From Bilabrum cf. latius (lineage: Eukaryota): a stretch of DNA of 64,000 nucleotides. Below the pieces are notes generated by a model. That model was not told the DNA's origin. It ran no database searches and saw nothing but the letters and a program-made list of their open reading frames with translations. The stretch is from assembly GCA_965178125.1 (NCBI GenBank), contig OZ237746.1, positions 992,001-1,056,000 of the forward strand, read 5' to 3'. Shown in pieces: positions 37,809 to 64,000 of the stretch (its first letter is position 1; each line of letters opens with the position of its first letter). The translations under genes and the position numbers were made by a program.

Positions 37809-40312
37809 GCCATCGTGGTCGGCACGGGGAGGGGGCTCTGGGGTTGCCCCCTTTGCCTCTCTCCTTGCCTGTCACTTTGTCGAACCTCGACTGAACGGCA
37901 TGGGCTTCTTGCTCTCGCAATCGGCCGGCCGCTGACTTGCTTGGCCGCGTGCCCGAGGGCTCGCTGCCAGGCCCGCCGCGGGGTCCCCGTTTGACCGGGT
38001 CGTCCGCAGCGGTTGCCCACTTGCCGTGAATCTCTTGTTTGTCGCATTCTCCCTCCTCGGCCCGCGCTAGAGTTGGCACAGAAAAGAGCTGTCCTTGCCC
38101 GCTGCTTGCCGTGGGGCGCGCAGTGTCGGATCGCAAGCTTGTCTGTCTCTAGGGAGCCGTAGGTGCAGGGTCGGTGTCACGCATCGCCTTTGACATCAAC
38201 GCGGCTGGAATCGTCCCGAGGGAAGACTGCCTGCTGCGGACGTCGGGCTTGCGCGCCGGGCCTCTGCTCAGTTGTGCTGTCTACTCCACACCTTTCCAGG
38301 CTGCGGTATCCAGTACGAACCAATCCCGCTCGCTTGGCGAGTCCGTCGCTCAACCCCTGAATTCCTACCAGCTGTGCCAGTCTTTGCAGACGGCTCTTGA
38401 AGCGGTAAGAAGGGGAGTGCTCGTGGGCTCAAGCCTCGCTTGCTCGTTGCGCCGCGGATCTGTCGCTCGTCTTCTCGGTCGTCGGCTGGGCCTTTCGGTC
38501 CAGGAGTCCTGCAGAAGCACATCGCATTAGATCAACGCTGCGTCTAAAGTTGCCGCGCGCCTGGCTCAAGGCGTTGTGCTGGCGGGACAGCTCGCTTTCG
38601 CTTGCTCTCCGCCGGCTGCCGAGCCGGGTGCTGCTGCTCGCCGCGTCGGACCGCAACAGGACTCGCAGCGCTGTCCAATCAGTACGGGTTGTACTAATTA
38701 AATGGCATGCAATTCCTTTTAAGTTGTTACGGGACGCTGTCGAAGACAGTGGCGGGAGGAGGTGCCTGGTCCATCCGGGTGCCGGGCCCATTGCTGGGCG
38801 GCTCACCGGAGGCCGACTCGCCCCTCTTACAGTAGGTAAAAAATTGGCGTGTGACTCGTCAGCTGCGCAATCCTGTACATCGGTTGCAACCTGGCATTTT
38901 GGCACGCCGCAGATCGCGTACTGGGGACGCCCCAACCGGCCCGGACTTGGGCTCTCAGAATCGCGCGCTGCTATTCAGCACTCCGCAGGCCACAACGGCT
39001 TCTTTCACGCGTGCCGACGGCGTCTCATCCGCGCATAGCATGTCGCTGTACTGAAATATTGCGTTGATTGGAAGCATGCACGTTGAAGCGATTCCTACCG
39101 CGGCAAAGTAGCAACTGAAGCACCTCGTGCACCACACTTCGCCGGCCGCAGAGACTTCTCCACGACTGCACACATCGCATCGCAGCGCAACGAATGCACT
39201 CCATTCCGTTCCAATAGAATTCATATTAGATTTGCTGCGGCGCACGATCAAGATGGCTGTGAGGTTCGGCTGCAGCTTGTGCAAGACGGCATTCCAACGG
39301 CCTGCAACCAAGCAGCCGGTCACTGCTTGCACTTTCCCGGCAGATTTTCTTGTTCCAACTGTTCGGATTCCAATCTATTATACATTTAAATTGGTTTGAA
39401 TGGCTTGTCACTGCCTGGTATTGTCTGTGGGCGCGGGGCTGCGAGCTCTGACCACCAGCCAGCCCTCCCGGGCCTCCGCCGCGCCCCATTGCCGAGATGA
39501 AAACGGAGCCCATGCTCTATGCAGCCGGTTCAGCCCGCAATCTATGCCCCCCTTACCTGTGGATGTGCCTCAATCCGTCCTAGCTGTCAGCAATCGAGCA
39601 GAACAGCGACCCATCGAGAGCAGGCCGTGCGCGACCGCCCGGCCGGCCCATTCCAAGCTGCGCTTCTGCGCAAAGTATGCGTGCCTAGACCGCACCACAT
39701 ACTTTTTCTTGCAGTATTGTTCATTCCACCTGCTCCTTGGGCTCCGACAAGACCTCCCCTCCGTCAAACCGCGAGCCCCACCCCGAGCGACAAGCAATTG
39801 CTCTACTCTGGCGGTGCAGCCGAACCAGGTCTCGAGCTTGGCCCCGCCCACACGGCCGTTCCAGGAGTTATCCGCAATCTTGCTTCTAATATGTCTAAAT
39901 CATCGTCCAGGCGCCCCAAAGTTGCCTCGACCTGCCCTGCGGCCGAGATACGCGACGGATGCGGTCGCAAGGCACCTCCTCACGCAGTGAGTGCGGCAGG
40001 TACGCGCCCTTCATGGCACCATCCTTTCGGATCGCGCACTCAAGGGCCACCCACTCTAGCTCAATCGACACCTGTGCGCTGAATATGCGGTGAGTGGGCC
40101 CCTGGGCTGCATTGCGGGGCCGGTAGTTGCCGGCGAGGCCCGAGGCAGCGGCGGTGCGACCACAGGCGGCAGAGGTGCGCCCAGACAAAGAGGAAGCGAT
40201 GCATAGGATGCAGTACGCTGTCACAGGGTGTGCATAGGATGTGATGCATGAGTAAAAACCGAGGGGGGCATTGCGCAAACGTACACTGCAATCATCGAGG
40301 CAAGAAAAAGAG

Positions 40313-40432
40313 AGGCCTTCATCATCGGGGCTTCCCAGCTGGTCACCCACGCTAGTACTGGCCCGACTGGTGATTGCTTAGCTTCTGAGGTCGGCAGGGC
40401 TCAGGCGGGTCCAATCACATATGAACGAAGAC
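40313..40432 (-). rRNA. 5S rRNA (IGS-linked copy 5)
   Basis: Same sequence as 2365-2484. Confidence 0.9.
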
Positions 40433-41631
40433 AGGTAAGATGCGGACATCACGTTACTCGAACCATGCAACAGGTACAGCGGCAAGCCGGGCCAGCGGTG
40501 GGGTAGGAGGGGTGGGGTGCACGTGAGCGCGACTCGTGCACAGACTGCACAGCAAGCCAATAGGCACGCATCAAGCTTTAGCGAAGCGACTAGGCTGCGC
40601 ATACAGCGTGAATTGAGTACCTACGAAGAGGGCGGGAGGGGCGGCAAGGCATCGACAGCGGGTCGTAGCGAAGGGGGTCACTGGGAGGGGGACCGGGAGG
40701 GGCTGTGGCAGCGGGTAGCAGCGAAGGGGGAGGCTGAAGGACTAGGAGAGGCTGCGAGGGCAGTGTGCTAGCAGGCAATGCCATGGGTATGCAGTGAGGA
40801 CAAGTGGTGTCAAGCCATGCGTGGGAACGTGTGGTGGGTGGTGCTGGTGCGGGTGCGGGTGCGGGTGCCGGTGCCGGTGCGGGTGCGGGTGCGGGTGTGG
40901 GAGGGATAGATTGTGGGTTGGTTGGTTACTTTGGTGGTGCCGTAAAGGCACCGGGGAGTTAGAGCGGCCCGCCGCTCAGCAGCCGGGGCGCTGAGGGGCA
41001 GAGCAGCAGGCGAGTGGCTGAAATCAATGAGTCCGAAATTCCTCATAGTGTAGCAGTCAATCACCAGGCGAAAGAGTGCCAGGACGTGGAGGCACCTGCA
41101 GAGACCATGAGGAATGGTGTCCGAGGGTGGCTGCCGTCCGGCTGTACTCTTTCCCAACGCGTTCCAATGAAGGACCGGTTGACAAGAAGTGTGTTTGGTT
41201 GGGGTGACAGAGAATGCCCTTGGTGGAAGAGGCTGCATGTTGGCTGTAGGTGACATGGTGGCTTGCTTGATTACTAGCATAACTCTGGTCGATTCAACTC
41301 AGTGATTCATGATTCCATTTTGACGGACTCTGTGGTCGGCTAGTCTCCTACTGGAACCATCCGTCTTGTTGAGCCCGCTGGATGGGATGTCCTCCCACCC
41401 TTGCCACTGGCTGCAGTCATGCCGGAGGTGCGACCACCGTCTCCAGATGCATCCCCTCTCGGCTTTGCGCCACTGGCGGTTGAATCCGACTCCATCGGGC
41501 GAGCTGCACCTGAGGCTCCTTCACTGGCGCGCGGTGCCCTGCCGCGAACCTCCCTGGTGCTGCTGTGCTTGCGATGATGTGCATGCTGACCGGCAGCTCG
41601 AAGACCTGGTGCCCACCCACCCACCACGAGG

Positions 41632-41831
41632 NNNNNNNNNNNNNNNNNNNNNNNNNNNNNNNNNNNNNNNNNNNNNNNNNNNNNNNNNNNNNNNNNNNNN
41701 NNNNNNNNNNNNNNNNNNNNNNNNNNNNNNNNNNNNNNNNNNNNNNNNNNNNNNNNNNNNNNNNNNNNNNNNNNNNNNNNNNNNNNNNNNNNNNNNNNNN
41801 NNNNNNNNNNNNNNNNNNNNNNNNNNNNNNN
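41632..41831. other. Assembly gap (200 N)
   Basis: Run of n characters; true length unknown. Confidence 1.
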
Positions 41832-42878
41832 GACCGAACCTCGCAGTTGGCAAATCGTCTTCCTCGCACAGCAGGATCGACAAGACCAAGGACGTCAGCA
41901 CTGACAAGAGTTTCTAGGAAGACGCCATGGGATACAACGGCTATGTTGCGTTCCGATCGAGTGTAGAGGAACCGGACAAACGCCCTTGCCCTCGCGATCA
42001 CTTCGCTAACAAGCTCGCGCCTATCAGGTTGCCACCAAGTATCTTCATTTGTTCGCACCAAACTAAAGTCTACGTGTGGAAACTATGTCTTCATCTGCGA
42101 GGTTACTGAAATGGTGTGGAACAAGGTGCGATTTGCTTCATGCCTTGCAGGCTCACCACACGACCTATCAGTAGACACTAAGCTTACCGCAGAAACTGGA
42201 CTTCTTCTATCGCACGGATGCAGCCCATATGCTTCACGGACTGCCTCAACAGCGACCATTGGAACCTTTGTGCCGAAGATGCGGGTTGCAGTTTGCAGCG
42301 TCCGCAGCAGCGGGCTCACTAGAACCACGTCAACGCGTACTTTGCGCCTGGATAAATCTTCCCCTACAGCTGAAGCCTGTCGTTTGCCTGTGTCGTCCAG
42401 TCTGCGAGATGAGAATAACCAGTAGAGTCAAGCCAATTCTGCGCAGTCAAGCGTACCACTGCACATGTACGCCTGCAACAGGCTGGGTACGCTGCAGACT
42501 TTTCAATACTCATCAATGTTATCATAAGATCATATTTACAGATCAGACTACAAACTAGGGCGCCGGAACTGCCATTGACGCGTCGACTGCTTCCACCAAG
42601 TGCTTCCGCACCTTCACGCATTTGAAGATGGAAAAGGGGTTCTCACGATGCATCAGTCAGCGATACGTCGAGGTATGCCTTTTTGCCTCTATCTCTAGCG
42701 GCGACATTCTGCGAAATGTATCAGTAGATCGATCGTCGTCCATGTGCAAGCCCCATCAAGATGGTGTGATCCATCAACAAGACCACCACAGCCTCACATG
42801 CAACGCCTGCCCGTGTCGAACTAAATGCACTCTCTTAGCATCATTCAAACTCATCGCATAGCCCGCTGGTACCGCCAT
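41832..42878 (-). CDS. Histidine phosphatase / phosphoglycerate mutase-like protein, spliced; 3' end runs into the gap (possible tail in 41340-41631)
   Basis: Exons 42878-42798, 42708-42647, 42401-42188 and 42094-41832 (into gap), with GT...TCGCAG introns of 89, 245 and 93 nt. Spliced product: ..VHLVRHGQALH/NVAARDRGKKAYLDVSLTDAS/LDDTGKRQA..VSPLLRTLQTA..REAYGLHPCDRRSPVSA/MKT[TAG]FPHVDFSL..IAVVSHGVFL..FANCEVR. The RHG, SPLxRxxQT and SHG motifs are intact. Confidence 0.88.
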
Positions 42879-43076
42879 GTACTTGATGTTCGCAACGAAA
42901 GTGTGGTCGCGTGACTGAAGGTGCGATGTGCATTTGGCTCCGGACTTCCGGCAAACAAAATGAAAGTTGAACACGTACCACGTTCGTACACGACTTGATC
43001 AACAGCTGAATGGCAAAATACTTGCATCATGCATCCAGAGTTTTGAAACTAGTAATACGTGACATTCGAAAAAGAG

Positions 43077-43196
43077 AGGCCTTCATCATCGGGGCTTCCC
43101 AGCTGGTCACCCACGCTAGTACTGGCCCGACTGGTGATTGCTTAGCTTCTGAGGTCGGCAGGGCTCAGGCGGGTCCAATCACATGTGAACGAAGAC
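43077..43196 (-). rRNA. 5S rRNA, solitary copy outside the array
   Basis: Identical to the IGS copies except A>G at 43185. It keeps the CTCTTTTTC terminator, and its flanks are unrelated to the IGS. Confidence 0.88.
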
Positions 43197-44039
43197 GCCA
43201 GGGAGGCGGCATAATAGGATTTAGACCACATACGCGCAATGTGATACTCTAGTTTCAAGTTTCATTGACCTAGAGTTACAAACTATACATTACTGCCAGC
43301 TTCCTTGTGGGGTTCATGTATCCAAATGACCTCTAGTTGCTGGTTCGCACCTAAGCAGGAGTTAATGTGCATTCAACGTGGTTGCAACTAGGGTGGCTTG
43401 ATATGAGCCCGGATCGCACACATGGTGGAGCTGTCAGCCCCAGCCGTAGCATCAGCCTGGGTATGTACACTGTTGGAAGACGATGAGGCCAGTGAGTAGC
43501 CACAGTGCCTGCCTTTGGATCAGTGGCGCCGGCAAGCTTTGCCAACGCCCATGCACGTACAGGAGCAATGGCATGCTCTCGAAGACGCGCTTGCTTGCCG
43601 CCTGAAGACGACACAGGTAGAACGGAACAAGGCATGGCGTCCCGCCTAGCCATCTTGTACCCTACCGCTACAATACCGCGTCCTATGTATCTTCCCTCCT
43701 CTTTCTCGCCGTCGCAACTCACCACCGCTACGCGCACGACTTCTCGACTTGTCCAAGCACCTACGTCCAGCTCACGGCCCCAGCCTGAGAGGCGCAAACC
43801 CCTCACGCACGATCCCATTTTTAGCTCACCTGACATCGTGCTGCCTGTACATAATGGGTTTGTCATGCTGCTCACATCCTGGGGTAGCAACGATTCGCTT
43901 CAATATTGACCCACCCAGCTAACTAGCCGGCTCCGAGCCGACTGGGACTGAACCCACCCTGCTTCATGGAAGCGAAACCCTGGGTAGCTGAACCATCAAT
44001 TCTAGATCATTCCGACCCGGGGTGCCATCAAGTGCTGCA

Positions 44040-45719: not shown

Positions 45720-48700
45720 TCAGCCGTCGGGGGGTGGACGCTCGCCATCCCGTCGACGATGCCGCGCCATTCCAATGGACAAACGTGCAAACTGCAAGGC
45801 AAGGTCTTCAGCACCACCGCCAGACGACGTCAAAGTCTCGCGCCCCACGCTAAACCGGTGGTCCCGGCTAGTCTTGGACTTGAGCTTCATCATGAGCGAT
45901 CGAAGCCCTGCTGGTGGGCCACCATCACCTGCCTCGGCAGGCCTTGCTGATGGCTCACCATTCAGACAGGCCCGCCGTGCGAACTTGCGTGCTGCTAGAA
46001 CAGCTTCATCATGGCTACCCCTGTGCATGCACTCAAAGACTTGGTGGCATGCAACGTGGGCGGATGGCAGCACCGAGGTATCAGCTTGCCGCTCGCACGC
46101 CAACCCTGTGACATCTTGGCTCTATCCACGGGACACCCAGACTGGTGCAACCGAAGCTTGTCCGAGTTCACTAGCGTTTGCATGCTTCTGCCCAGTTCCA
46201 TGCCTGAATGACCGCGGATTGTGGGACAGGAACCCGAGAGTTGCGATCAGCAGGCTACCTAGTTCAGCGCCACTAGGCACCGGTTGCGGGTCTGGCGCAA
46301 GTGTAGCGGTGGCAGCGGGCTCTATCGTCACGCCTAGGCGGCTTAATTCACGTGAGTCCAGCCTCGGGGCGGACTGCAATGTCAACCCCGCGCAAATTGC
46401 GCAAGCCAGAGCAGCCTGCAGATGCTCGTGCTCGGCTAGCTCGACAAGTGGATCCGTGCGGGAGGTTTGCTTGGCAATGCCGAGCTCTATGGCACATGCA
46501 AGCACAACTAGCACAGACGCAGCCAGATCGGCACCTTGCAGCTAGAGGAGGCCGTCCAATGCATCCCCGTGGCGACGGACCCGCACTCGAATGCCGGGTC
46601 GTGCTACGCGAGAGTCAGACCCACCGGCACCCAGACCCATCCACGACCCCGACTCCAGCACCACTTGAACCCCTTGGACAGCTGGTACAGCAGCAGTGGG
46701 CTGCAAAGTTGGCGACGCTGCTACTGCACCTTCCTTTTCCACCCACTCGCCGATAATTGGGACTCGCATTGTGGTACTAGACGAAGCCTCTCGGGTCCAC
46801 CCTTGGGGCCTGATGTGCGCGATCTTCCGAGCCGCTGCTCGTCTGAATAGCCGCATTGACTCCACTAGCTATTCCGCCAGACTCCTCACGGCAATTTTCT
46901 CGGGGGGCACAGAGCGGTCGACTGCGTCGGCGCCACTGCGGTGGACCGCGGGATCGGCAACAGCTCTCCACAAGGCTACCGGCCGCGCACATCGCACCAT
47001 ATCATCGTCCGGCAGCTCTTGCGGCGGGGCCAAGCGACACCCAGCACAAGTTAGGCACAGTGACAGGGAAGCTTCTGGCTTTACAATCCCTTCCGCCGCA
47101 GTGGGCCGTGCCTCCCAGTGACCAAGCCCAAGGCAGCGGCGCCGTGCCATGCTGGCCACAGCGCGGGCTACCTAGTCCGCTGCGCCGGCGTCTCGGCTCC
47201 AGATGGCTTGCAGCGCCGCGGACCACTCTTCGAAACTTGAGACACCCTGTGCCTCATCCTCCAGTAGCAGCGAGGGCGCGCACGCCACCGTCTCCTCGTC
47301 CCGCTCACCGGCTGCCTGCGCGAGCGTTGCGCAAGCAGCATCCCACAGCAGCGTTGATACAGCTTCCGGTGAAAGTAGCAGTGGAAACGACCGCCCACGC
47401 TTCTGGTCATGCGCCTCCAGAAGGACCCCTAGCCCAAGGGTTGCGGGCTCATCCCTGTGGTCCGAGACGGAGGCGTCTCGAGCATAGCCTCGTGGCACAG
47501 ACAGGAGCGCAGGTGCCAGCAGGCAGGCCTGGTGCGGGGCGTCCGCAACACTCGCGTCACCGTCGCCTCGCGCGTGCGCAGGACTGGCATGCGTGCCCTC
47601 TCCCGTAGCGTCATCTTGCATGGGCACTGGTGGCGACTGCATCAAGTCCCCGGCCGCGTCGGCCGCGGTGCAGGCTCCTGTGACAGCGCGAGGTGGGAGC
47701 GCTGCAACGGGCAGCTTGGGCTGCTCGGGGGCGGGCATACCCATTAAGGCATGGAATATACGCAGGTTCTCCCCCAAAGCGTCCTTGCGGCCCGACCTTG
47801 GGATTGGCACCGCTGGCTCCCATGTGGCGTCACATCCTGGGCTTACCTACGAGTAACACACCACGGGATACGCGCTCAGCACGAGCCGGGTGCCTCCCAG
47901 CAGGGAACGGCAAGCCATCCGGCAGATCGGACTCGGTCGGGTGCTGGCAGTTGGCGTTGTGCCAAGAGACAACGCAATCGAAGAGAAAAGCGGCCTGCTG
48001 CTGTCACTGCCTCTATCTGCGTGAGGAAGACCAAGCAATCCCCGCGCAGGCTCCAACTCCTGGGCAGCCGGACCGGCAGCGCCTGAGCCAGTCGAGGGCG
48101 GCAGCAGCGGGGCAGCGCCAGAGCCGCCGGCTTTGACGGCCATGGAAGGGCGGTCTCGATCCAGATCCTGCCTCCCCGAGAGCAGCAGTGAGAAGGACCC
48201 TGGCTGCATGTCCTGCAGAAAGTGCCTGGCCACCTTACCGATCAGGATACCCGGCAGCCGGACCCGAGCGGCCGCCTTGCTGACCAGCTCATCGCCAGCT
48301 GCACTCCGCATGGTGTGGTGGGAGTCGCTGTGGGAGTCGCTGTGGGAGTCGCTGGCAACGTCCGATCCAGCATCCGCGGCAGCCGCTACCACGCTTGGCG
48401 CTGGGAGACTCTGCACGGAAGCACTGAGCCCAAGGGTCGCACGTGCGACGACCTGAAGCTCTGGACTCGGCCGTGCCAGCGCGTCGAGGGCTGCATCGGC
48501 CCCCAAGTCGCCCGCGGATTGTTCTGCGGCTTCATCTGCAGACAGGCTCGTGCCGACCCGGCCGGCGGCTGTCGAGTATCGGGACGCTTCGTGACCCGGA
48601 GAACTATCGAAGGCGTGGGCCGAGTCCTGCACGCACAACTCCAGCAGCGCTTGCTTGGCCCACTGCCTCCAGTCATCGCCCGGTGGACACTGGTGGTCCC

Positions 48701-51700
48701 GCAGGAATCGAGCGATGGCACCGGCCACTCGTGGCCTGTCGCCGATGTCTCCCCCGCTCTCGTCTGCACCGTGGCTAACCGCAGCACCGGGAGGCAGGAT
48801 CTGAGATGCCTGCATAGCCTCAGCCTCTGCTGCCTCGGCCACTGCACGGGCCCCGCCAGTGTCCTGCCATTCCTGCAGCCCGCCCTCCACCGCTCGCCCC
48901 GCCGCTTCCTCGTCCAGACGCCCCTTGGCCTTCTCGCTGGAGGCCCACTCCTGCAGGCGAGCCTGCTCGGCGCTGCGGGCAGCTCGCACAGCGGCCTCTG
49001 TGTGATCTCTGATCCACCTCCTTCGTAGCAGCACAGCGCACCGGGCCGCCACAAGGGGCCGAGCATCCGGCGGCCCGATCCACAGGACCGCATCCCCTGG
49101 CTGGTCAGCGCTGCCTTCCGCAGGCCCGCTTGCCCCGAGCCACGACTGCACGAGCGCAGAAAGCTGCTCTGTAAGCTGCACAACTTTGGGATCCATTCTC
49201 GAGCGAGGGACCGTGAGGCCAGCGCTCGCGGGGTCGGCGCTCTGCCGCACCTCATCGAGCGCCGACTGCATGGATGCAAGCACTCGGCCCGCCGACCCGT
49301 CACCGTCCGCGGGGGCGACCCGCGCCAGCGTCTCGCGGTCGAGCAGCACGTCTGCAGAGGACTGCGAGCTCGAGTCGCCGCAATAGGCAACCACTCGGAG
49401 AGACGGGGTCCAGCGGAAGGCGCTACTCGTCCCACCTGCAACGGACCCCTCTCCATGCGCGCTGCCCTACGACGTTCCATCAGCACTTCCAGGGAAGCGT
49501 GGAGTCAGCACCCACCGGAGGGAAGACGTGATGGTAGCCACGCGGGCTGACACCGCCCGGTAGCCAGAATGCTCGGCCGCAGCGACCGCGACCCCAACTC
49601 GATCCGACCCAGCAGCCGCCTCTAGCGCAGAGGCGGGCGTGGCTGTCTCTGCAGCCAGCGCCTGCACGTGTTCCACCGCGGCTGGGGCCGAGTCGCTATT
49701 TGGCTGAGAAAGGCCCAAGGCAACTGTGGCCTCTTGCACAGCCCCGGCCAGGTCTCGTGGACGAGGCGCCTCTGACGCCACTACCCTGCCGAGTGCCGAC
49801 GCTGCAGCCGCCGTGCGAGCCTGGAGCGTGCCTGCGAGCACGGACTCGACTCGACTGCGAGCGTCGATGGCTTCAGCGTTCTGACGAGCGTTGTGGAACA
49901 GGACGCTGTCGGGCAAGTTGCCGCGCACATCTCTCAGCATCACAGGCACGCGTGCAGCCCTGCGCAGCACTCGACCGGTCAGCGCCGCTCGCTCCGCCTT
50001 ACCGGGCCCATCCGCGTCTACCTGCGCGCTGGCTGGTATCACACCGGCGCGTGCAAGCGAAGACGACCTGGCACGCAGCGGAGTGCCCGGACGAGACGGA
50101 GGCCGGCCGCGACCGAACGTGTGTGCCGAGGGTGCCAGCGAGTCTGCTTCGCCGCCGCGCGGCTGCTGCAGCCAAGGCATCCAGTCCAGGTCTGGCCGCG
50201 CATTGAGCAGCAGGCGACGGAGTGCGTCCAACTCGGGCGAGGCCTCGGCCTCGCGGTCCATTGCGTCGGTGCTCAAGCTCCTGGGCCGCAGCGCCTGCTC
50301 CACATCCTTTGCACTGCACCCGGGACGCAGCGGCAGCACGAGACCGCAGGCGGCGCTACCGGCCACGGGCGCGCTGGCTGTGGGAGAGATATGGGGATTC
50401 TCCAGGCACCCTGCCGCTGCCAGGGCCCGCGTCGCATCTGCACCTGCCTGCATCATGCCGGCCAGCTCGGATAGCTTGCTGTGCGCCAGCGCGCGACGCT
50501 CTATCGCCTGCGGCTGCCGAGACGCGAACCGCAGCCTGCGCCTGCACTACTCTATGCGGAGACGCAGCGCCTCGCTGCAGTGCCTCGCACCCAGCATGGA
50601 CGCGGCCAGGGCGGCGCAGCCTCGCACCATCAGCTGCGCGTGGCGAGGACCAGGTGACGGAGGCGTGGCCGTGCGTGCCAGGCTTCCGACCCGCAGCCAC
50701 CGATGTCCTTTCCCTCGCTCCTCCGTGCTGGCTCCTCGCGCTCTGGCCTGCCGCAGGCTGCCGCGCCACGCAGACAGCAACTGCAATCCAGCCCGCCGGC
50801 GCGAGACCGCGCACCGGACGAGGGCCTCTGCGATGCGACGGGCCACCGGGTCGCAGCACGCCAGGTACGTCGCGTGCTGCACGATGCTCCCAGCGGGAGA
50901 CGAAGCTGCGCTGGATGATGACAAAGCGTCCGCGCTACCGAGAGCCCCGCCTCCTTCCACCGCGAACTGCGCGCTGGCTAGGCGGCAGGACCACGCTTCA
51001 ATCGGCGAAGCGCGGTCCTTGCTGGGTGCTGCTTTGGTGCAGCGGTGCGCTGCGAGAAGCGCGGAGCAGGTGGCACCAAGGGACTTTGGCCTACAATCGG
51101 GCCCGAGGGCCGCCTCGAATGCTGCCTGGTGGAGGACGCGGTGCGCACCGAGGCTCACAACGCTGTCGCGCGCGATCGGAATCCTCCCTCCAGCCGTGCT
51201 GCCTGCTGCCGTCCGCGCAGCATCGTTCGCAGGTTCTGTCCCGGGCGAGACCAGGACTAGCGGGGCGGGCTCGCTGGCCTCTAGCGGGGTATTCCACACC
51301 AGCAGCATCCGAGTCGCATCGCTGGCGCCGGCCGCTGCCGCCTCAGTCTTCTCACTCCCCTACCGCGACTTGACAATGGGCTGCGCCCGCGGTCGGATGG
51401 AATCTCGGAGCTGCTGGGCAAATAGGACAGCCCCGGCCGCCGCCTGCTCCAAGTCTGCATCCTCTTCTTCGGTTCGGTTCGTCCCCGGCCTGCTGCCTGC
51501 AGCTGCAGCCAGGAGCAGGTACCGAGCCGCGTCGGCTGCGAGCGGCAGGCGGTCAGGGCCCTCGAAGTCCTCGTCGTCTGGATGAAGCCCCGACCCCGGC
51601 CGCATACCCATGGACGCGGCCTCGCCATCCGTAGCACGGCTAGGCTGTGTGCCGCCCCGGGCAGCGGCAGCCGGTGATCGCGTTTGGGCTGCCACCGAGG

Positions 51701-54700
51701 CAGCCAACTCGCAGGACCATTCGCGCGTGGCCTGCCACCACACCTCTTGCCACGGCTGCCCGTCGCCCAGCCCTTCGTTCAGCTGTAGCGACCCCAGTCC
51801 CGCCTAGATTCCCGCGCGCATGGGACCTGGGATGTCCCCGCAGCAGGCCAGAGCCATGCTGGCCTCGTCCACGGAGGGCAGGCCTAGCAGGACTGAGCCG
51901 CTGCCGGCCACATCGTCTGTTTGCCACGAATTATTCCGCAGGGCAGCAACCGCTCGCATGCGCGGAACTGCGGCGGGCGAGGCGGCGGCGTGGGAAGCCA
52001 GCCGCAGCCGTTGCATGGCTGCACCGGCGCGCACTGCGATCCCACGCGGCTCTCTGCCCGGCATCGATGCGAGCAAGGTGGCCAGCACGCTGGAGGCACC
52101 CATCACGCGCCCCATTTCCCGCGAACCGTCGTTGAATTGGGTGCAAGCAAGGGCCAGCAGGCCGGGGCCAGCCAGACGACGCTGCAGGGAATCCATGGCC
52201 CGGACGCACCCCTCCTCCCACTCCAGCCCGGCGCGGCCCTCGGCCTCGCCGGCCGGTCCGAGTGGTCCAGGCTCCGGGCCGGCTTTCCGCATCCGCAGCG
52301 TCAGCCTTCCCTGGCTCGCGTCCACCCACTGTAGCGATAGTGGAAGCAGCTGCAGCAATTGCCGGAGCAGCCTGCCCCTCGCAGGCGCGCTCACGACAGG
52401 CGGCCACACCTGCTGCGACCGCAGGCGCATGGCTTGCTCTCGAGCCACAGGAGCTCCAGCCATCAGCCCGCGCACAGCTCGCAAGCCACTGCTTGGTGGT
52501 ATCACGCTGCGACCCTCCGTGAGACGAGAGCGCAAATTCCGCGCCGTAGACCCAAAGACAGCCCCCGTGGAGACATCGGCGGAGACTCCCGGCCTCTGCC
52601 GCCCAGCGCTAGCGTTCCCGGCCCCTCCTGGCCCTCGGGCAAGCACTGCCCCCGCTAGTCCGTGCGCCTCCTGCTGCCTGGCATCTTGCACCTGCTCCAG
52701 CGCCATGGACTCGACTGCTGCCCTGCGAAGGGCTTCCGCAGTTTGCTCGCAGGAGAGGGACAGCTCCCAGCCTGCCACGGGCCTCGCGCCGTACGTTCCG
52801 TGCATGGCGCCGACACGTTCTCCAGACGCTAGGTGTCCGTGGCCAAGTTCTGCATCCGCCACCCGGGGCGGGCGGCCGTGGGCTCCAGGTCGCTGCACGT
52901 CGGACCCGAAGAGGTCCGGGTAGTCAGTCCAAGCCCCGAGCGCAGCCTCTCGACGAAGCGCGGCGGCAGCCGAGGCGTCGTTGGTAAGAGGGTCGCCACC
53001 GTGCATGTTGAGCCGCTCCAAAGCATCGGCACCACCGCTGGCGGACAGCTCGCTGCCGACGCCGCCTTGCGGCCGGCCCCGCACGGGGACGGCGTCCGGC
53101 AGCGCGGCCTGCCCGCCCGGCTCCACGAGCAGCACCACCCCGGGCTGCCACGGAGGCAGCCGGTCCGGCAGATCCACTCCCCCGCCTTCACCCTTCTCCA
53201 CGCACAGCTCGCCGCTGGGACGGGACTCGTCCCGAGCTCCCAGCACCACTGCCACCCGGACCGTCTGCCTACCCACCGCGGCGGCAGTGCGCACCAGGGT
53301 CCTGTCCACGGCGGCACGCACGGACCCGCTGCTGCCGACCGCTGGCGCTGAAGAAGCGGCGGGTGACTCACCCCGGTGCAGAGATAGCCGATCCCGCTCC
53401 CCTGCCACCCCGTGCGCGGCCTCGACTGGGCCACCAGCCAGCCAGCCACCGGCCAGCGCAAGCGGAGCGATCCGGCGCCGACGCCACCGCGGGGCTAGGC
53501 TCGCTGCCCGGGTGCGTGCCGGTGCCAAGGCAGGTGCAACGGCCCGCCGGAACGTACCCACCCGCATCGCAGGGCTTGGCGTAGACCGACCAAACTGCAC
53601 AGAGGGCCTGCGGTTCACCAACCAGGACTCTAGAGCCGAAGCATCACGCAGCGGACCCGCCAGCTACCGCCCCCGTGCATGCTCAGCGCCACCCTCTGTC
53701 GAATCGCTCCTGCCAAACCTGCGCCAGCCCATGGCGCCGGCTCCGGGCCGCAGCCAGGCAAGCCCGTCCTCGCCCGAGCTCTCCGACGGCAGCTCCAGCA
53801 TGTCTGCGTCCCAAGGATTCTCGCCCGGCCCGTCTCCACCCTCCGAGCGCGACTCTGCCGAGCGGGAGGTGCGGTAGAAGGGGTCTCGCTCCGTGCCCGG
53901 CCCAGCAGTTCCATGGCTCCTGCCGGCCGCGGATCCCCTACTACTCTGCAGCTGCTCACGCCCCGTGAACCACCCCTGGTCCTGCGGGTGCTCTCCCTCT
54001 GCTTTCCCGTCCTCGATCGCCATGGGTACCGCCCCGCCCTCGATCCGCCGCCTCTCGCCGCCCCTAGACCCCAGGCGCGTTGCAGCCCCCGACCACTCCT
54101 CCTCGGGCTGCAGCTCCAGCGCCTGGCCCGCCTGCTGGCTGTCGTTCTGCCACTCGCTTCCTAGATCCAACAAACCCATCCCGTCTCTTTCTCGGCCGCG
54201 CACCAACTCGGACGCGGCAGCCACGACAGCGGTAGGCAGTCCGTCCGGCCTCACCCGCAGCTCCTCCGCCAGCTCTTCCCAAGCGCTGGCACTGCGGGCG
54301 GCAAGAGCTCTAGAGGCCGCCACTTGCCTCATCGCCGCCTGTCGCGCCGCAGCCGGGCCAGGAGAGCTGCTCCTGTGTCGCTCCGGCACTGTGCTCGTGC
54401 TCTCCCACTGACCGGGTTGGCCGCAGCGCGGGCGGGGGCAGATCGCTGCAGAGGCTCCCAGCTGCTCCCTTGACAGCCCGATGAGCCGTGGCTCCAGCGC
54501 CTTGCGCACGTCCGCGGCGTTTGTGCCTATCCCCGCCCTACCCAGCAGCAGCAACTGCTCCAAGGGGCACAGCCTCGTGGTGTCGGCCCTGCGAGCCACC
54601 GGCGAGTAGACGTGCACTTCGAGCTCCGGCGAATGCTGGGTCTCGTCACCCTCCGCAAAGGAACGCGGCGCCTCTGGTGGTTCGGTGCCGTTCTTCGTCG

Positions 54701-57700
54701 TGGCCCTGGTTCTGGTTCTGGTTCGGGTTCGGGTTCGGGAGGGCGTGTGTCCCTGCATGAACACTCGCACCACGCGGAGCTCACCTCCGATGCGCTAGGC
54801 CCACGCAGCCACCTGCCTTCCTCCCGAGCCGCGCACCCGGATGCTGATGGGCTGGGCCCGGCCGCGGCCCAGCATGGCAGTGCCACTCGGAGCCACCGGG
54901 AGCATGGCCATGGATACGGCGAGCGGAGCGGGAAACTTGCGCACGCTGCCTCCTGGCACCGCATCGCCGCCTGGTCCTTGCACCTGACTCGCAGACAGAG
55001 CGCACGCCGCCTCCACTCGCGCCCAGAGGTCCAGGCCGGCCCTCGAGCCGACAGACACGCTCTAGATCCCCAATCCCGCGTCGTCCCGCAGGCCGCCTTG
55101 CGCGAGCTCGAACCAGGCGCCCTGCTCCGGCCGCATTCCAGCGCCCGCTGCCGTGGCCTGCCTGCGGTGTAGCAGCCATTCGCGAGCTGCGTCCCGCACC
55201 TGGACCAGGAGTGCCTTGCGCTCCACGCCGATCATCGCGCCCACCGTGTCGATGCCCCCGCTGGACCTGGAACCGCCCTCGCCCTGTTCCTCGCCCTGCT
55301 GCACCGCGTCCGCCCCCCTGTCCAGACCTACATCCCCGCTCGAGGCCCCTAGCGCGAGCGCGCCCTCCCGCAGCAGCCGCTCCCACGTCGATGCCCGCAC
55401 CATGTCGCCGGCCGCGGCGTGCACGCCCAGGTATGGATCCACGGGCGACAGTGCTGCTGCGAGCGCGTCGTACCCGCCGGCTCTCCACCGGCCGACGGAC
55501 AGCCGGTCCACGAGCGCGGCCGCGACGCGGCAGAGGTCCCCGGAAGCGATGGACGCTCGTTCTGCAGGAGACCCGGACTGCTGCGCGATGCGCGCGGTGG
55601 CCCACGAAGGCAGCTGCACGTCCCAGCTGCGCTCCGAGGCCTGCCCGCGGCCCGATCCAGAGCCGCCAATCCCGCCGGACGGCAGCATGTGCGTGCCCTG
55701 TGCCTCAATGGCCAGCCGCAGCTGCGGGGAGGGGAACACACGCAGCAGCAGAGCACCGGAGGGCTGCCGCCACGCCTCGACTCGCGCTGGCAGCCTCCCG
55801 GGGCCCAGCCGCACAGCCTTGCTCAGCAGGCGGGACCGCTGCCGCACGATCGACACCAGCACGCGGCCGGTGACAGGGTGCCTTCGGAAAGCCAGGAACT
55901 GCGCCAGCGAGGTCACGACGGCCCCGACGGCGTCGAGGCTCTCGGAGATGCCTCCTGCCACCGCCCGCCCCTTGCCGCGCGCGGAAGAAGAAGAAGAAGA
56001 CGACGACGACGACGCGTCGGCGCTTTTGCCCTCGTTCGTCCCTCGCTGCGCTCCGAGCTTGCGTCGCAGCGCCAGGGCCCCGAGGTCCGTGCCAGGGCCC
56101 GCCAAGCGCCCGGCAGCGCTCCTCTCTCGGCCGCGGCTCGCGTTCGCGCCAGAGGCTCCCCGCAGTGCGGGTGGGAGCGGCCCGGGCGCGCTCCTCGGCG
56201 CCTTTCGCCCTCTCGCGCGCAGCTTTGGAGCCATCTCTAGCAGCTTTCGTCCGGCGCGGGTCCCCCGCAGCACCTCTGCGACGTGGGCCTCGTCGTCGTG
56301 GGTGGCAACTACGCGCCACACCGCGGCTCTCTGGTGGTACACGCAGAAAAACACCCGCCCGAACGCGTGAAATGCCGCGATGGTGCACAGCGCGAGGCCC
56401 TCGGCCCCGCCACCCTGAGGCGTGCCGCCGCTCATCCCCAAACTGCCCTCCCGGGTGTTCCACCCAGCCCCTGCGCTTCGCTGGACTAGCGCGGCCTCCT
56501 CGTCCCTGCCGTAGTTCCGCAGGACGGAGCTGAGCAGCAGGGGAGTAGCAGCCGCTGCATCCTGTTGTTGGTGTGAATCAGTCGAGCCGCCGGCAGTGGC
56601 GCCGCCATCGATGTGTTGGTGTCGCCCAGCGGTGCGTGCAGCTGGCCTGGCGTCGTACTCCCACTCGCCAGGGACCTTGGACACCCCGAGCCACACCCTC
56701 GAGTCGCGCAGCACGGCTCGCAGCACCTCGTCCAGGGCTCGCAGCCAGCCGCCGTCGCCCCCGTCACCGTCTACGGTGGGCACTCCTCGCCCCGTGCGCC
56801 GCCTGCCGTGCTCCCGCTTCCAATCCAGCTGTCCCGCCTCGGCATCTCGCTGCGCCGCCGCGCTGATGCTGCCACCGAGGCCATGCTCCGGACGCACGTG
56901 GCCAGCGCTGCGACCCGTGCGAGACTCATCCTGGACGTCTGGCTCTGCCGTGCCTGCGGCAGCTGGACGGCGCGGTGGGCGGCTGGCCCCCTCGGCAGCA
57001 TCGCCCGGCCGCCCCTGACCCCGCTCAAGCTCACCGTTTACGTCCTGCACACCTCCATACAGGTTGTACCCCACGTGCCCGTCTCCCAGCAGCACCAGGC
57101 TGTCCGCCTCCAGCGCCGTCACATACATGTGGTGCGGCGGAGTCTCTGCCGGAGTCACTGGCCCCGGACCCGCGCCGTTGCCAGCTCCTCCACCAGCACC
57201 GCCTTTGCCTGCTCCTCCTGTCTCTGACGACGAGCCATGCACCACACGCGTGATGCGACCGGGCGCCAGGGCCACCAACGCCTTGGCCGCCGTGTGCGCC
57301 TTGTCCGAGACGTACTTTGTGGCGATGGCAGCCGTGTCCGAGGATGCCAAGGTCACGGCTCCGTGCCCCGGCCCAGCGCCCGCCCCCTCCCCGCGTTTGC
57401 GGTGGCCGGCCGAGGCGGAGGCCGAGACAGCTGTGGCGGGGGCTCGCGCGTCGCCCGGGGCCCATCCTCCGTGCGGCCTCAGCGCCCGGAGGGCCGTCTC
57501 GCTGTGCGCCGACACGACCGCGTACCTGAGGTAGAGCTCGCTGCACCGCGCCTCCACCCAGGCCGCGATGGCACGCATCGCCGCGTTGCCGAGACGACAG
57601 CCGCTCCCAGCGGGGGCGGCGGGCCACTCCGGGTGCAGGATCCTCTGCCGGACGCTCGCCACGGTGGCCGGCGCGGGCAGGCCCAGGTCCTCTCGTCCGG

Positions 57701-60700
57701 AGCCCGGCTGCGGACGCCCGTCCGTCTCTGCCCTCAGCCGAGTGGCTAGGTCCCAGGGCGCCTCCAGCAGCAGCAGGCGCGCGCTCTCCCACAGCGTGCC
57801 GGCGCCTCGAGTCATGGGGGCCGACAGCAGGCCGCGCAGCTGCGCCGCCGAGTCCTTGCTGCCCGCGTGCGCCACCGAGTCCCCCGGCCCGAGCACACCT
57901 CCCTCCCTCCCTCGGGCCACGGCACGCTGCCGCAGCAGCCACCACTGCCGCCCCGCCTCCCTGCGCGCCTCCCTCTCCTCCTGCGGCGTGCGCCCGTCCG
58001 GTACGAGCAGCATGCCCAGGGCCTCTGCCACCAGCACGAAGGACACGGGGGGAGTGTCCGCGGCGGCGGCCCGCTGCAAGTCACTCGCCATCCGCAGGGC
58101 GAGGGGGCCGGGGCCAAAGGACGAGGCGGGACCCCCTTCGTCCGGGCGCGACACCTGCAGGCGGGAAGGGTCCGCGGCGGCACCGGCCCCCGACCCGCCC
58201 CCGCCCCCGCCCCCGCCGGCGCTGGTGTCCCCATCGGCCGCCGCCCTCACGCCGTCCTCCCCGCCACCCAGCCGCCAGCACGCCTCCGACTGCGCCTCGA
58301 GGCAGCTGGCCAGCCCCGGTTCAACGGCGGCGCTCATGGCCTGCGAGAAGAGCGCGTGGTCAGCGGGGGACAGGTCGCCGCCTTCGCCCAGCCGCAAGGT
58401 CTCGTCGCCGGGCCCGCTCGGGGGCATCTCCAGGAGCCGAGCGTGCTCGAGCGGCAGGCGGCTCTGGGCAGCGCCGCCGCTGTTGCTCGGCAGCTGCTGC
58501 ACCTCGGTGCGCGTGGGGGGTGGCAGGGCGGGGCAGCCCCCGAGGGGCACCGCCACGGCATCGGGAGCGGACGCGTCCCTGTAGCCCGACATGGCCCTGG
58601 CTTGCGGGGGCAGCAGCTGGCCAGACGATCCACCCGAGCCGTTCGATCCGGCCTGCGCACGGCCAACCAGGCCCAGGCCCAGGCGGCTCGGCTCCACCTC
58701 TTGCCACTCGGGACCCACCCAGCCGCCGCGGCTGAGGAGCCCCTCGCGCAGCAGCTGCGGCGCACCCGCCTCGCCCAGCACGAAGCGCCAGTTCCACACG
58801 GCCGCGATGCTGGGCGGCAGGGAGCGCGCCGGGGGGCTCTGTGAGCTGCCGGCGCCGATGGAGCTCGGGGGCGTGGGCAGCGGCATCTGCATGGCCGGCC
58901 GGCCCGTCTGCCTCCGGTCGCCGTCCTCCCGACCGGCGCCCTCGTCGTCCTCGCCCCCGCCGTACCCCAGCTGGTCCCGCCACAGCGCAGCCCCGAAGAT
59001 GTCGGTGCGCTCGGGGGCCCCCGGCAGCGGGTCACGCGCGCCTGCTCCGACAGCAATTGTACCAGCAGCAGCTTGCAGACCGCAGGACCGCAGGCGTCCG
59101 GCCCGTGGCGCGGTGGGCGCCAGCAGCACCACCACCCTGGGCCGGGGTCGCAGCTTCCGCACGCGGGCAAGCGCTCGCGCCGCCCGGCTGCGGCCCGCGG
59201 GGGTGCGGCCGCAGGTCAGGTACGTCACGGCGCACCGTCCCGCGGCCAGGACCCGCTGCAGGGCGCGGTGGGTCGGCGGCAGGCCCTCGTCGATTGCCTC
59301 CGGGGCCCCGTCGGCGGTCTGGGGCAGAGCCATGGGCCTGGCTCCCGGGGCCATGTCCCTATCGTACCCCGGGGCCTCCCTCTGGTCCACCTCGGACTCG
59401 CGCGCCCAAGCCCGCAGGTCGGGCCGCACCCCGTCCTCCAGCAGCCGCGGGAGGAGGGTGAAAGCGCCCGCGCACTCGGCCCGAAGCGCGTTGACGAGCC
59501 GCTGCTGGGCGAGCAGGGGAGTCTCCGTGGCGAGCACGAGCACCACCGGCCGCCGCAGCCCCTGCACGGGGCCCAGCAGGCCCCGGATGTCGGCCCCGGA
59601 CAGGGCGGAGGCGCCCTGCGGCGTCTGCGGCTCGGACGCCTCCCCGCCGCCCGGGGACTCATCCCCACCGCGGCGGGGCCCAGCGGGCAAGCCATCCACC
59701 GCCCCGGTGGCGCTGGCCGCCTCGCTGGCGACCCTCGCTCTCCTCCTCTGCTCGACCACCAGCGCGAGGCCCTCCGCCCGCTCCGCCCGCACCGTCTCGG
59801 CCACGCACGCGCGGACGCCCTCGGCGCCCTCCAGCCGCAGGACGAACTGCGGCGCCAGCATGGCCGCCTGCGAGAGGGCCTGGCACCACGCCAGCAGGCA
59901 GCCGGCGGCAGCTCCCGCGGCGCTGCTGCCGGTGCCCCACGAGGCCGGCCTGGGGCGCGCGGCGCTCTGCACGGCGAGCTGCATGAGCCCCCCCCGGCGC
60001 CGCAGCTGGCCCCTGGCAAAGTCCCGGTGGGCCGGCACCAGCGACGTCTCCGGGGGAGGAAGCACGGAGTCCTGCAGCAGCGGCCCGCTGCGCCCCTCCA
60101 CCGACGGGTCGGCCTCGCGCCCGGGGGCCGGGCCGTCCGCCACGCTGGACCCCAGCGGGGGCGCCGGGGGAGGGGACGCGGCCGCCGCCACCACGGCCCG
60201 CACGCACAGGGTGGGGTCCGCGAGCATCGCCCGCGCGGCTCGCAGGCGCCAAGGCGGCAGCATCACCCGGCCGGCCCTCGCGGCGGACGCAAGCCTGCCC
60301 GCGGCCGCGCGCACCTGCTCCCGCAGCGCCCCCGAGCCAAGGCGCCGCTCCCGCAGGAGGGACCAAGGGGCCAGGCACAGCGGGCTCACGGACAGCCGGT
60401 CCTCCCTCTCCGGCCGGGGCAGCGCGGGGGAGGCGGACTGCGCGTGGTCCACGGCCGGCAGCAGGTGCGAGCGCACGCGCATCTGCTGCGCGCCGCCAGC
60501 CCCGGCCGGTGGTCCCCGGCCCGTCGTGGCGGCCGTCGACTCCGACTCGCGGTCTGCCGAGGTGGGGGCCAGCAGCAGCGCCGCCACCTGCACGAGCATC
60601 AGCAGCGGGGGGGCGGGCGCCTCGATCCGGAAGAGCCCCTCCAACCCCTCCGCAGTGATCCCGCGGGCCGCCACTGCCGCCGCCTCGGCCGCCTGCAGCA

Positions 60701-63700
60701 TGGTCCTCCGCTCCCGCAGCCGCCTCCTCCCGCAGCTCCCCCGGAAGGCCCTCTGCAGCTGCGCCGCCGCGAAGGACGTCGCGAGGAACAGCCGCCTGGC
60801 CTCGGCCCGCGCCCGCCCCTGCCGCCCCCTCTCGGCGCGCTGCAGCAGCCGGGTGGCCCCCACCACGCGCCGAAACTCGGCGGCGATGCGGCGCCCCCCG
60901 GTGCCCCTCCACAGCCTCTGCAGGTTGGTGGCCGACCGCGTGGCGGCGCCGCGCAGCCGCGCCGCCCGCACCCTCGTCTGCACCCCGCGCACCAGCGCCT
61001 GGATGGCGATCGAGGCCTCGAAGGGGTCCCACACGTGCAGCGTCACGCCGGCGGGGGGCTCCGTGTCGGCCCAGTGCGCGGGCGCCCGCCGCCGGAGCGT
61101 CCCTCCCCCGACCCTGCCCGCCCGCCGCGCGTACTCCCGTCTCCACCGCGCGTGAGGATGCTCCGGGGGCGCAAACACGCTGACCCCGATGTAGGGCAGA
61201 GCCTGCGCCTCCCGCGCCTGCCGCACGAGCTCCTCTTCCCGCTCGGCCGCGGCCCGCGCCGCCTCCCTCCGCGCCGCCTCAGCCTCACCTCGCCTCTGCT
61301 CCTCCTGCCGCCGCACCCGCCGGGCCGCCTCCTCGGCGGCGGCCTCCTGCCGGCGCTAGGCCTCCCTCGCCCCTGCCACCGCGGCCGGCCCCGAGGCGCG
61401 CACGGCCTGCTCGACGCGCTGGGCACGGGTGGAGAACGCGTCGGGCCGCGCGAAGGACTCCGTAGGCGCTCCGGCCCGGCCCCGGTGCCCGCCGTCCAGC
61501 GAGTCCTCTCCGAGGCGTGGCTCGGCCCGCGCCACGTCCGCCTCTCCCCCTTCCTCCTCCTCCTCCTCCCCCACGCGATACGAGTCCCCATCAGCCCCAG
61601 AGGTCGGGCGGCCGTGGTCCTGCCGGTGGGCCGCAGGTGGTGGCGCCTCGTAGTCGAGGTAGCCGTCGGGGCCCACGCGCATGCGGCCGCACGCCTCCGC
61701 CTCGTCCAGCAAGTACCCGTGGGCCCACAGCACCGCGGCCCTCTCGTCCTCGCCCTCGCCCTCCTGTTCGTTGCGGAGCAGCTCGTCGCCCGGACCGGGC
61801 GCGCCGGGCAGGGGCGGCAGCAGCTGTGGGCCGCCCGTGATGCTGTGGAGGTCCCGTGCCGCGCGGGTCCTCTCGACATCTGCCAGCCTGCGCTCCGCAT
61901 CGGCGAGCAGCAGCGGATTCCCATCCAGGGCGGGAAGGGGAGGCGCCTCCTCTCCGTCCAACATAGCCTCGTCACTCTCCGCCGCCGCGCCTGCACCTGC
62001 ACCTGCACCTGCACCTGCACCTGCACCTGCACCTGCACCGCCGCCAGCAGCGTCGTGCCCACCGTCCTTTTTGCCGCCGCCCGCCCACCGGCCGCGCGCA
62101 GAGTGCGCCTCCCCGCCCAGGCCCGCCTCAGCCTGAGTCTTGGACTCGAGGGACCACCCGCCGCCGCGGATGCCGCCCGAGGCAGAGCTCGCGCTTGCGC
62201 CCGGACCCCCACGCCCGGCCCGGCCCCTGCGCCTCACGGCAGCCCCCAGCCACGGCAGGGCGGCCCCCACCACCTGGAGGTCTCCCATGGCCTTGCCCAG
62301 ATACGGCACGCCCCCGTGCACGAACGGGGGCCAGTGCCCGCCCCCTTCCTCCCCCGCAGCAGGCCCCGAGGCGCGCTCCCTCCGGACAGCGTCCTCCTCC
62401 AGCTGCACCAGCGCGGAGGGCACCGCGCCCTGCCTAGCCGCCGCTGCCTCCCTCTGCGCGGCCCATCGGCTGCGGCTGGCCGCCCTCCAGCGCGCCACGG
62501 CCCCCACCAGCTGCATGCCCGCCTCCCGCAGCCGGTGCACGAGGTCCCCCGACGACTCGCGCGCCTGCGCCCTGGCCGCCGCAACCGCCTGCCGCTGCTG
62601 CCGAGTGCCCGTGGGCGCCGACTCGCGGGCCGCTTTCTCCGCAGCCGCCGCGTGCGCCCCCAGCCGCACGGCCCTCCTGAGCAGCTCCTCCCGCTGCACC
62701 GCCGCGACCACGCAGTCCCTGTGCAGCGCGTCCAGCTGGTCCACCGTGACTCCAGGTTTCCCTTCCCGCGCCTGTGCTTCCTACCGCTCTCCCTGGGCGA
62801 GCGACGGCCGGCTGTCGCGGCCCCACGGGACCTGTCCCACCCTCGCGGCGCTGGAGGAGGCTGCACCAGCAGCAGCAGCAGCAGGGGTGTTGGCTGGGGC
62901 GGGCAGGCTGGGGAGCCGCCCCGACAGCCTGCCCGCTTCTCTGGCGGCTGCAGCCGGCAGCATGCCGCTGTCTTCAAACGCGGTGACGCTGGCGCTGGCA
63001 CCCAGGGCTGCACCCAATCTCTTGCCACCATCTACATCGCCGCCTGCCAGGGAGCGGGGGGGGCGTTGCGGCATCATCCGGCGAACACCGAGCGTCACGG
63101 AATGCCCCGCCACTCCAGCAACCGCCGCCTCCCTCGCCGCCCTCCTGACAGCCAGGGAATCGGCCGGACCCATCGACCCGCCGAGCCGGGAGCCCAGCGC
63201 CGCCCCCGCCCCCGCCCCCGCCCCCGCCCCCGCCCCCTCGTGCGCGTCCTGCGACCCTGCGGCCCGGCCCGCGTAGCCGCGGCTGGCACTGGCCATTGGG
63301 GCGTCTAGCAGGGCCATAAGCTCGCCGCCCGCCCGCGCCCGCGCCCGCGCCCCCTCTTCCCCCAATGCAGCAGCCGGCACGGCACGCCCTGCCTGGCCTG
63401 CCTGCCCGCCGCTGCGGCGCGCCTACCCGGATAGGGCGCTGCGACCCTCATCGGACAGGAAGGTGGCCGCTGCAGAGCCACGAGCCGCGCGTGGTTGCGC
63501 TCGGTTGAGCCATTTTCGGCGGGCGCTCAGCTGCTCGGCGCGCTCGGCTCGCTGCGACCGGCGCAGGCGCTTCTGAAATCCGTCGGTGCGGTTGATGGGG
63601 CAGTTGGGGTCGAGCGACGCATCATATTCGGGGATGCCTCCAGCACCAACTTGTTGACGATTGGTACCACCCGCAGACCCGCTTCGGGCCCCAGCTCCAG

Positions 63701-63929
63701 GATCGTAGCCAGGTCTCGGGCGAACGCTCTGGCTCATTGGCTCGTCGATGCGAGGGTGGCCACGGTCACGCGCTCTTCGACTTGTTGCGGCTCGGCTACC
63801 ACCCCCTTGATCATCATGCAAGCTACTCATCGATCTTGCTTGCCTGCGCAAGGATTCAGACGGTGCTTTTGCTCCGCGACCACCATCGTCGCTCTCTTTG
63901 CCCCATGCCTGTGGCAGGCTAGGCAACAT
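45720..63929 (-). CDS. Giant (~6070 codon) Ala/Gly/Arg-rich protein with coiled coil and 4 IQ calmodulin-binding motifs; requires TAG read as sense
   Basis: Sixteen ORF-track entries share one frame (all stop coordinates divisible by 3). Fifteen separators are TAG and the last stop is TGA (45720-45722). I translated the gaps between the ORFs and found no other stops. First ATG is at 63929, although the frame stays open to the window edge. Small in-frame introns cannot be excluded. Confidence 0.82.
60721..61004 (-). other. Cluster of four IQ motifs within the giant CDS
   Basis: IQALVRGVQTR, LQRLWRGTGGRR, LQRAERGRQGR and LQRAFRGSCGRRR fit [IL]QxxxRGxxxR at regular spacing. Confidence 0.85.
61990..62037 (+). 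repeat. (CCTGCA)8 coding microsatellite (Ala-Gly run on the minus strand)
   Basis: Direct reading. Similar frame-preserving repeats occur at ~63201-63237 (CCCCCG), ~54708-54738 (GGTTCK), ~55984-56013 (GAA/GAC) and ~48320-48354 (12-mer). Confidence 0.9.
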
Positions 63930-64000
63930 GTACCCCTCTCGTTCCGCTTTCCAGAGAGACAGGCAAGGCACTTGTACAATGCTAGCAATCGATAGAATAA

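Follow-up and report, generated by a model that had tools for sequence, protein, structure and literature searches.

Probable sense use of UAG, uncoupled from UAA, in a GC-rich microbial eukaryote

The codons UAA and UAG are usually reassigned as a pair, and a gene in which one of them recurs in frame while the other is absent raises the question of whether the two have come apart. Such a gene lies in a stretch of 64,000 nucleotides from contig OZ237746.1 (positions 992,001 to 1,056,000 of the forward strand; GenBank assembly GCA_965178125.1, deposited as Bilabrum cf. latius), here called the window and numbered from its first letter. With TAG read as sense, the minus strand stays open for 6092 codons, from 63998 at the window edge down to 45720. 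These codons include 15 TAG but neither TAA nor internal TGA, and the frame closes on a TGA (45722-45720). An in-frame ATG at 63929-63927, just upstream of which the sequence is lower in guanine plus cytosine (GC), is a plausible start, which would give an intron-free gene of ~6070 codons at 45720..63929 (the giant gene). On the evidence of this gene, its relatives and a neighbouring phosphatase gene, UAG is very probably a sense codon in this organism and at least two relatives, most likely for glutamine, with UGA as a stop and with UAA not a sense codon, being either a stop or unassigned. The host would be a GC-rich microbial eukaryote that joins the few lineages in which UAA and UAG carry separate meanings.

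That the giant frame encodes protein, and is no chance opening, follows from the stops in the other frames, the periodicity of GC across codon positions and the abrupt change beyond the terminal TGA. Between 45000 and 64000 the other two minus-strand frames hold 59 and 67 TGA, 39 and 33 TAG, and 12 and 3 TAA. Coding periodicity is present throughout when the frame is cut into 21 bins (of 300 codons, save a final one of 93), with GC at first, second and third positions (GC1, GC2, GC3) of ~0.75, ~0.62 and 0.56-0.94, respectively. The 133 codons past the last TAG are free of stops, with 5 and 10 in the other two frames of the same strand there. The sequence immediately 3' of the terminal TGA is 49% GC, as against 61% before it, and within 140 codons the same frame meets four TAA, one TAG and five TGA. 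The 15 TAG codons themselves lie on the minus strand between 46122 and 63425, with first bases at 63425, 62783, 61358, 55064, 54797, 53666, 51806, 51362, 50549, 49469, 47849, 47174, 46871, 46544 and 46124. GC rises from 57% to 78% between 45.7 kb and the end of the window, and GC3 runs along the gene from 0.56 at the 3' end, through 0.94 near codons 900-1500, to 0.66 at the 5' end. Both TAG and CAA (43 codons, beside 198 CAG) cluster in the parts of lower GC, and no TAG lies between codons 881 and 2979.

The letters of these TAG codons are not assembly errors, since contigs from run X4 match all 15 with zero differences and those from run X5, which belongs to another study, match 14 of the 15 in the pieces listed, again with zero differences. 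The contigs of the public runs, among which no RNA source is listed, follow the DNA colinearly, with no joint that looks like an intron; the joints that are listed have sides of just 21-32 letters in GC-rich repeats and were treated as noise. An intron-free frame of 18 kb is notable in itself, because the phosphatase gene shows that this organism has ordinary introns. The same DNA (window 44001-64000) occurs in runs X1-X7 under three coded organism labels from three studies, with the listed gene pieces identical, which would fit a small flagellate carried along in cultures or samples of other organisms.

Is TAG translated beyond this one copy of the gene? A HMMER search with the C-terminal 1200 residues of the giant protein against 1.84 billion representative proteins returned seven proteins in total, all short fragments, five of which (P0001-P0004 and P0006) come from one close relative and are 74-93% identical to the giant protein. 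Four of the close-relative fragments end at the residue directly ahead of a window TAG (codons 5384, 5609, 5819 and 5959), and P0002 continues through the fifth TAG of the C-terminal 1200 residues, codon 5710, with leucine in its place. Gene callers that apply the standard code cut such genes, and the public protein collections searched have them only as TAG-ended fragments. Word-indexed protein searches with the giant protein gave 5 and 1 matches and were dominated by low-complexity candidates.

A scan of metagenome contigs of the Joint Genome Institute (JGI) added a single locus, L001 (3826 bases, 63% GC), from a relative that is more distant and less rich in GC; it encodes the counterpart of window codons 475-1715 at 62-67% protein identity. 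Its frame 0 holds 18 TAG, no TAA and no TGA in 1275 codons, and the other two forward frames hold 6 and 4 TAA and 16 and 23 TGA. Non-synonymous divergence (dN) between the giant gene and L001 is 0.40 and synonymous divergence (dS) ~1.9, which is saturated, giving a dN/dS of ~0.2; 664 residues are identical, of which 408 differ in codon. Judged by these values the two are orthologues under purifying selection, and in well-conserved blocks their alignment runs without gaps across TAG, as in RAERGR-TAG-GRARGK against RAERGRQGRARAE. On this evidence TAG is translated, and it is so in at least three related organisms. DNA of further relatives was not found when genome_contigs and viral_contigs were scanned with the two-sequence alignment.

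The window offers a further coding sequence on which to pose the question, a histidine phosphatase gene (PF00300) of four exons at 41307..42878 on the minus strand, between the final ribosomal DNA (rDNA) unit and the giant gene. Its exons run 42878-42798, 42708-42647, 42401-42188 and 42094 to 41307, separated by GT-AG introns that open with GTGAGG, GTGAGA and GTAAGC, and the spliced model can be aligned over its whole length with the Cafeteria roenbergensis protein P0009. The 313 codons include two TAG and are free of TAA and of internal TGA. TAG no. 1 (42083..42085) lies three codons into exon 4, and TAG no. 2 (41340..41342) 10 codons ahead of the terminator, which is TGA (41307..41309). The closest relative of this protein, P0010, is 92% identical, has lysine at TAG no. 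1 and glutamine at TAG no. 2, and past the latter column ends in the same C-terminal Met-Glu-Ser. TAG no. 2 is consequently not a terminator, since the two proteins share the residues beyond it.

Does the absence of TAA from these frames carry weight in DNA of such composition? Over the three coding sequences together (giant gene, L001 and phosphatase; 7680 codons) there are 35 TAG, no TAA and no TGA in frame, against 16-67 TGA in each off-frame reading, and TAA is present in the DNA off frame and in the 3' untranslated region. Under a code of the table 6 type, UAA and UAG would both be glutamine and TAA would merely be rare from GC-richness. The P values given here take TAA as a synonym of TAG, scaled by the A:G ratio of a codon family. 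On gene-wide ratios the giant gene alone is compatible with such a code, with 2.9-3.3 TAA expected and a probability of none of 0.05-0.07; on ratios within 250 codons of each TAG, 4.7-9.0 would be expected and that probability is 0.003-0.018. The missing TAA of this gene is by itself only suggestive, much as the earlier note had warned in holding that high third-position GC weakens the test. A table-6-type code can also draw on the strong avoidance of A-ending codons in some families (TTA 2 : TTG 54) and on the greater frequency of joint UAR reassignment in eukaryotes, of which at least 13 coordinated cases are described (PMC5304391). L001, being less GC-biased, is the informative sequence: its GC3 is only 0.61 and its CAA:CAG ratio 13 : 33, so that ~7 TAA would be expected beside its TAG codons, and none is seen (P = 0.0025). 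Pooled, the probability of no TAA to 35 TAG is 3.9e-5 by the CAA:CAG yardstick and 1.6e-6 by all A- or G-ending families together, with extremes among single families of 3.8e-9 (GCA:GCG) and 2.3e-3 (TTA:TTG, the least favourable). A table-6-type code is left with a slender chance. The earlier note had counted 15 TAG and no TAA in a frame of ~6070 codons where CAA does occur, had seen in TGA the only clearly placed terminator, and had proposed that UAG is sense and uncoupled from UAA. A recount gives the same figures, the phosphatase gene also ends in TGA, the pooled counts bear the proposal out, and in-frame TAA in proportion to CAA, which would point the other way, was sought in all 7680 codons and not found.

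Whether UAG is uniformly sense, and as which amino acid, can be argued from the same alignments. It is scarcely credible that the TAG codons mark a pseudogene, in-frame introns or assembly errors: the organism does have introns, one of which, at 93 bases, is stop-free in frame, but an excess of TAG without any TGA or TAA is unlike decay, selection on the frame is evident and its alignments pass TAG without gaps, and the TAG positions are conserved in the close relative and their letters the same in independent runs. Very little favours a position-dependent, ambiguous code of the Condylostoma or karyorelict type, in which UAG would be sense internally and might terminate near the 3' ends of mRNAs. 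Such codes exist (bioRxiv 10.1101/2022.04.12.488043) and just two gene ends are visible here, but both of these are TGA, reading passes the phosphatase TAG that stands 10 codons from the stop and goes on to the C-terminus that P0010 shares, and UGA and UAA are kept out of the frames, unlike in fully ambiguous codes. For the identity of the residue, 17 columns of the window/L001 alignment have TAG on one side, with partners Q in 4, E in 5, A in 3, G in 2, R in 2 and S in 1; two more TAG of L001 align to gaps. Four of the columns have 9 or more identical neighbours out of 12, and there the partner is Q three times and E once. Under increasingly strict context thresholds, posteriors from the pair's own substitution counts give glutamine 0.59, 0.86, 0.89 and 0.997, and glutamate at most 0.14 at each of them; with BLOSUM62 the figures are 0.60-0.85 and 0.14-0.40. 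Leucine is the partner in 1 of 21 comparisons (P0002, window codon 5710), and at least five residues have a higher posterior than it, values beyond the top three being 0.002 or less throughout. Reassignment of UAG alone to glutamate can appeal to the tally over all 17 columns, to the BLOSUM posterior and to the column of phosphatase TAG no. 1, where most other rows that cover it have E or D; it sits poorly with the best-conserved contexts, with the pair's own counts and with the glutamine of P0010 at TAG no. 2. These comparisons make glutamine the probable meaning of UAG and glutamate an unlikely one, with some other amino acid improbable.

It is worth setting out what weighs against UAG as a glutamine codon uncoupled from UAA. 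Glutamate outnumbers glutamine over the full set of aligned columns, five to four; the first phosphatase TAG faces mostly E or D, and K in P0010; and over the close-relative comparisons as a whole the non-conserved partners of TAG are L, K and Q, while the GAG at window codon 5030 faces a stop in the relative. Of the two visible gene ends neither is a TAA, both being TGA, so that UAA is at most a candidate stop. The sample is small, at three coding sequences and 7680 codons, and two of these are orthologues of one odd, low-complexity gene, which could share a gene-specific codon bias. Neither the window nor L001 yields a transfer RNA (tRNA) gene with ARAGORN, and the release factor eRF1 is not encoded within the 64 kb.

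If UAG is nonetheless read as glutamine while UAA is not, the change would be explained by a dedicated tRNA with the anticodon CUA, probably derived from tRNA-Gln. By the wobble rules such a tRNA would be unable to read UAA, which would leave UAG free to change alone, and eRF1 would be predicted to have lost its recognition of UAG. This mechanism is drawn by analogy from other UAG-only codes, as PMC11687900 and PMC5304391 describe them. Each independent split of UAA from UAG is a test of whether a tRNA-CUA and a narrowed eRF1 are sufficient for uncoupling.

Which lineage carries the code is a related question, on which the phosphatase bears. Its best named match is from Cafeteria roenbergensis, at 52% identity by BLASTP and 60-62% in alignments, and the Cafeteria-like fragments P0047, P0048 and P0052 start at the site of intron 3 in the window gene, and this suggests that the position of that intron is common to both. 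In a maximum-likelihood tree of 28 rows chosen from 79 matches, with fragments left out, the window sequence falls in an unresolved polytomy, and a bicosoecid-like stramenopile is given about an even chance as the source. The Cafeteria nuclear genome is ~70% GC with 1.7-1.9 introns per gene, and in the parts available its description names a non-standard code for the mitochondrial genome only (PMC6972860). A full-text literature search, with subscription journals and supplements outside its coverage, turned up no stramenopile or bicosoecid for which a nuclear code change is reported. A bolder account would make this the first nuclear code change in a stramenopile, in bicosoecid-like flagellates of at least three species, in which UAA had already nearly gone at ~70% GC, leaving UGA as the sole effective stop, UAG as glutamine and UAA unassigned; we regard this full sequence of events as doubtful. 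Were it true, a GC-rich setting with a single stop would be the reverse of the AT-rich, UAA-dominant setting of the other UAG-only codes.

Two further features of the phosphatase gene concern how it is read. A 200-N scaffold gap (41632-41831) falls in its last exon; almost nothing is missing there, because in P0023, a public fragment that is 99% identical, just one residue (Ser) separates the two sides of the gap. Intron 3 (42095-42187), which is the stop-free intron of 93 bases, would appear as an insertion of 31 residues if left unspliced, a caution against intron-blind reading of open frames in this genome.

The giant protein itself offers few clues to function. Two halves of it gave no Pfam family at E<=1, and a Pfam search with 15 segments plus L001 gave sub-threshold matches only, such as IQ at E = 0.04 in L001. 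Four tandem IQ-like motifs lie at codons ~995-1100 (window ~60700-61020) and are conserved in L001 at ~1660-1990; outside these motifs there is no family match, and relatives of the protein were found in this lineage alone. Dinucleotide and short microsatellites inside the coding sequence are translated into Ala-Gly, Arg-Thr and Ser-Asp-Ser-His runs. Another dinucleotide repeat, near 40.9 kb (40850-40930), lies in the spacer.

Most of the remainder of the window is a tandem rDNA array on the minus strand, in the order 18S-5.8S-28S-5S with a period of ~9.4-9.5 kb, which spans 1..43196 when extra 5S copies are included; four full units, all on the minus strand, lie within bases 1-44,000. The extra 5S copies at the array edge (40314-40432 and 43078-43196) are 99% alike over 129 bases and 2764 bases apart. 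They flank the phosphatase gene on both sides, so that a protein-coding gene is embedded between 5S genes. The 18S scores 1639 bits for its 1700 bases, near the eukaryotic consensus, and the 28S is likewise near it; one copy of each lies at 36109-37808 and 31741-34897, respectively. The 18S copies of units 1 and 3 (7706-9287 and 26686-28263) each lack a different internal stretch of ~120 bases (18S positions 1305-1422 and 153-274); they are otherwise one base off the full copies of 1700 bases, and their Rfam scores are lower accordingly. These short copies may be real deletion variants or a product of assembly collapse.

How, then, does this code compare with those already described? Codes that reassign UAG alone are known but few, as the earlier note had said: those reported are the rhizarian exLh (leucine), Iotanema spirale (glutamine), Scotinosphaera (serine), Protocruzia tuzeti (glutamine) and the phyllopharyngean ciliates (leucine once, glutamine twice) (PMC11687900, PMC5304391). 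The more familiar table 6 type, with UAA and UAG both glutamine, is found in many ciliates, Hexamita, Streblomastix, Ulvophyceae and Amoeboaphelidium (PMC11687900); it would probably have glutamine for UAG in common with the window, whereas its defining in-frame UAA is missing here, at none to 35 UAG. In Oligohymenophorea sp. PL0344, UAA is lysine and UAG glutamate (PMC11687900); glutamate is the second-best reading of UAG here, but UAA, a sense codon there, does not occur in frame. The rhizarian exLh and an uncultivated phyllopharyngean lineage also reassign UAG alone, to leucine, for which the 1 in 21 comparisons noted above offers no support (PMC5304391, PMC11687900).

The closer likenesses are to the codes in which UAG alone became glutamine, the pattern of NCBI table 15, and in-frame UAG, the absence of in-frame UAA and a UGA stop are all found here. 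Iotanema spirale, a fornicate in which UAG is glutamine and UAA and UGA are stops, likewise has UAG alone reassigned, probably to the same amino acid, and neither system has UAA or UGA within its coding frames (PMC5304391). UAA is the predominant terminator of that species, whereas both of the terminators seen here are UGA; the coding sequence here is also very rich in GC, with GC3 up to 0.94, the 18S is near the eukaryotic consensus, and a stramenopile, not a metamonad, supplies the only close homologue that has a name. Protocruzia tuzeti, Hartmannula sinica and Trochilia petrani, with UAG as glutamine and UAA as stop, show the same pattern and would be expected to share the tRNA-CUA mechanism (PMC11687900). 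UAA ends 86.9-98.3% of genes in these ciliates, at a genome GC of 27-54%, in contrast to a GC of 57-78% across the giant gene and the UGA seen as terminator here. The code of the window would thus add a lineage to a known type, with GC-richness as its unusual feature and possibly its lineage as well. In the UAG-only lineages whose terminator use these papers describe, Iotanema spirale and the phyllopharyngean ciliates, the main stop is still UAA (PMC5304391, PMC11687900), and in a GC-rich genome UAG would be expected to serve often as a stop and not to be given up easily. A GC-rich coding sequence whose visible gene ends are UGA therefore offers a probe of the dependence of stop capture on base composition that the codon-capture view predicts.

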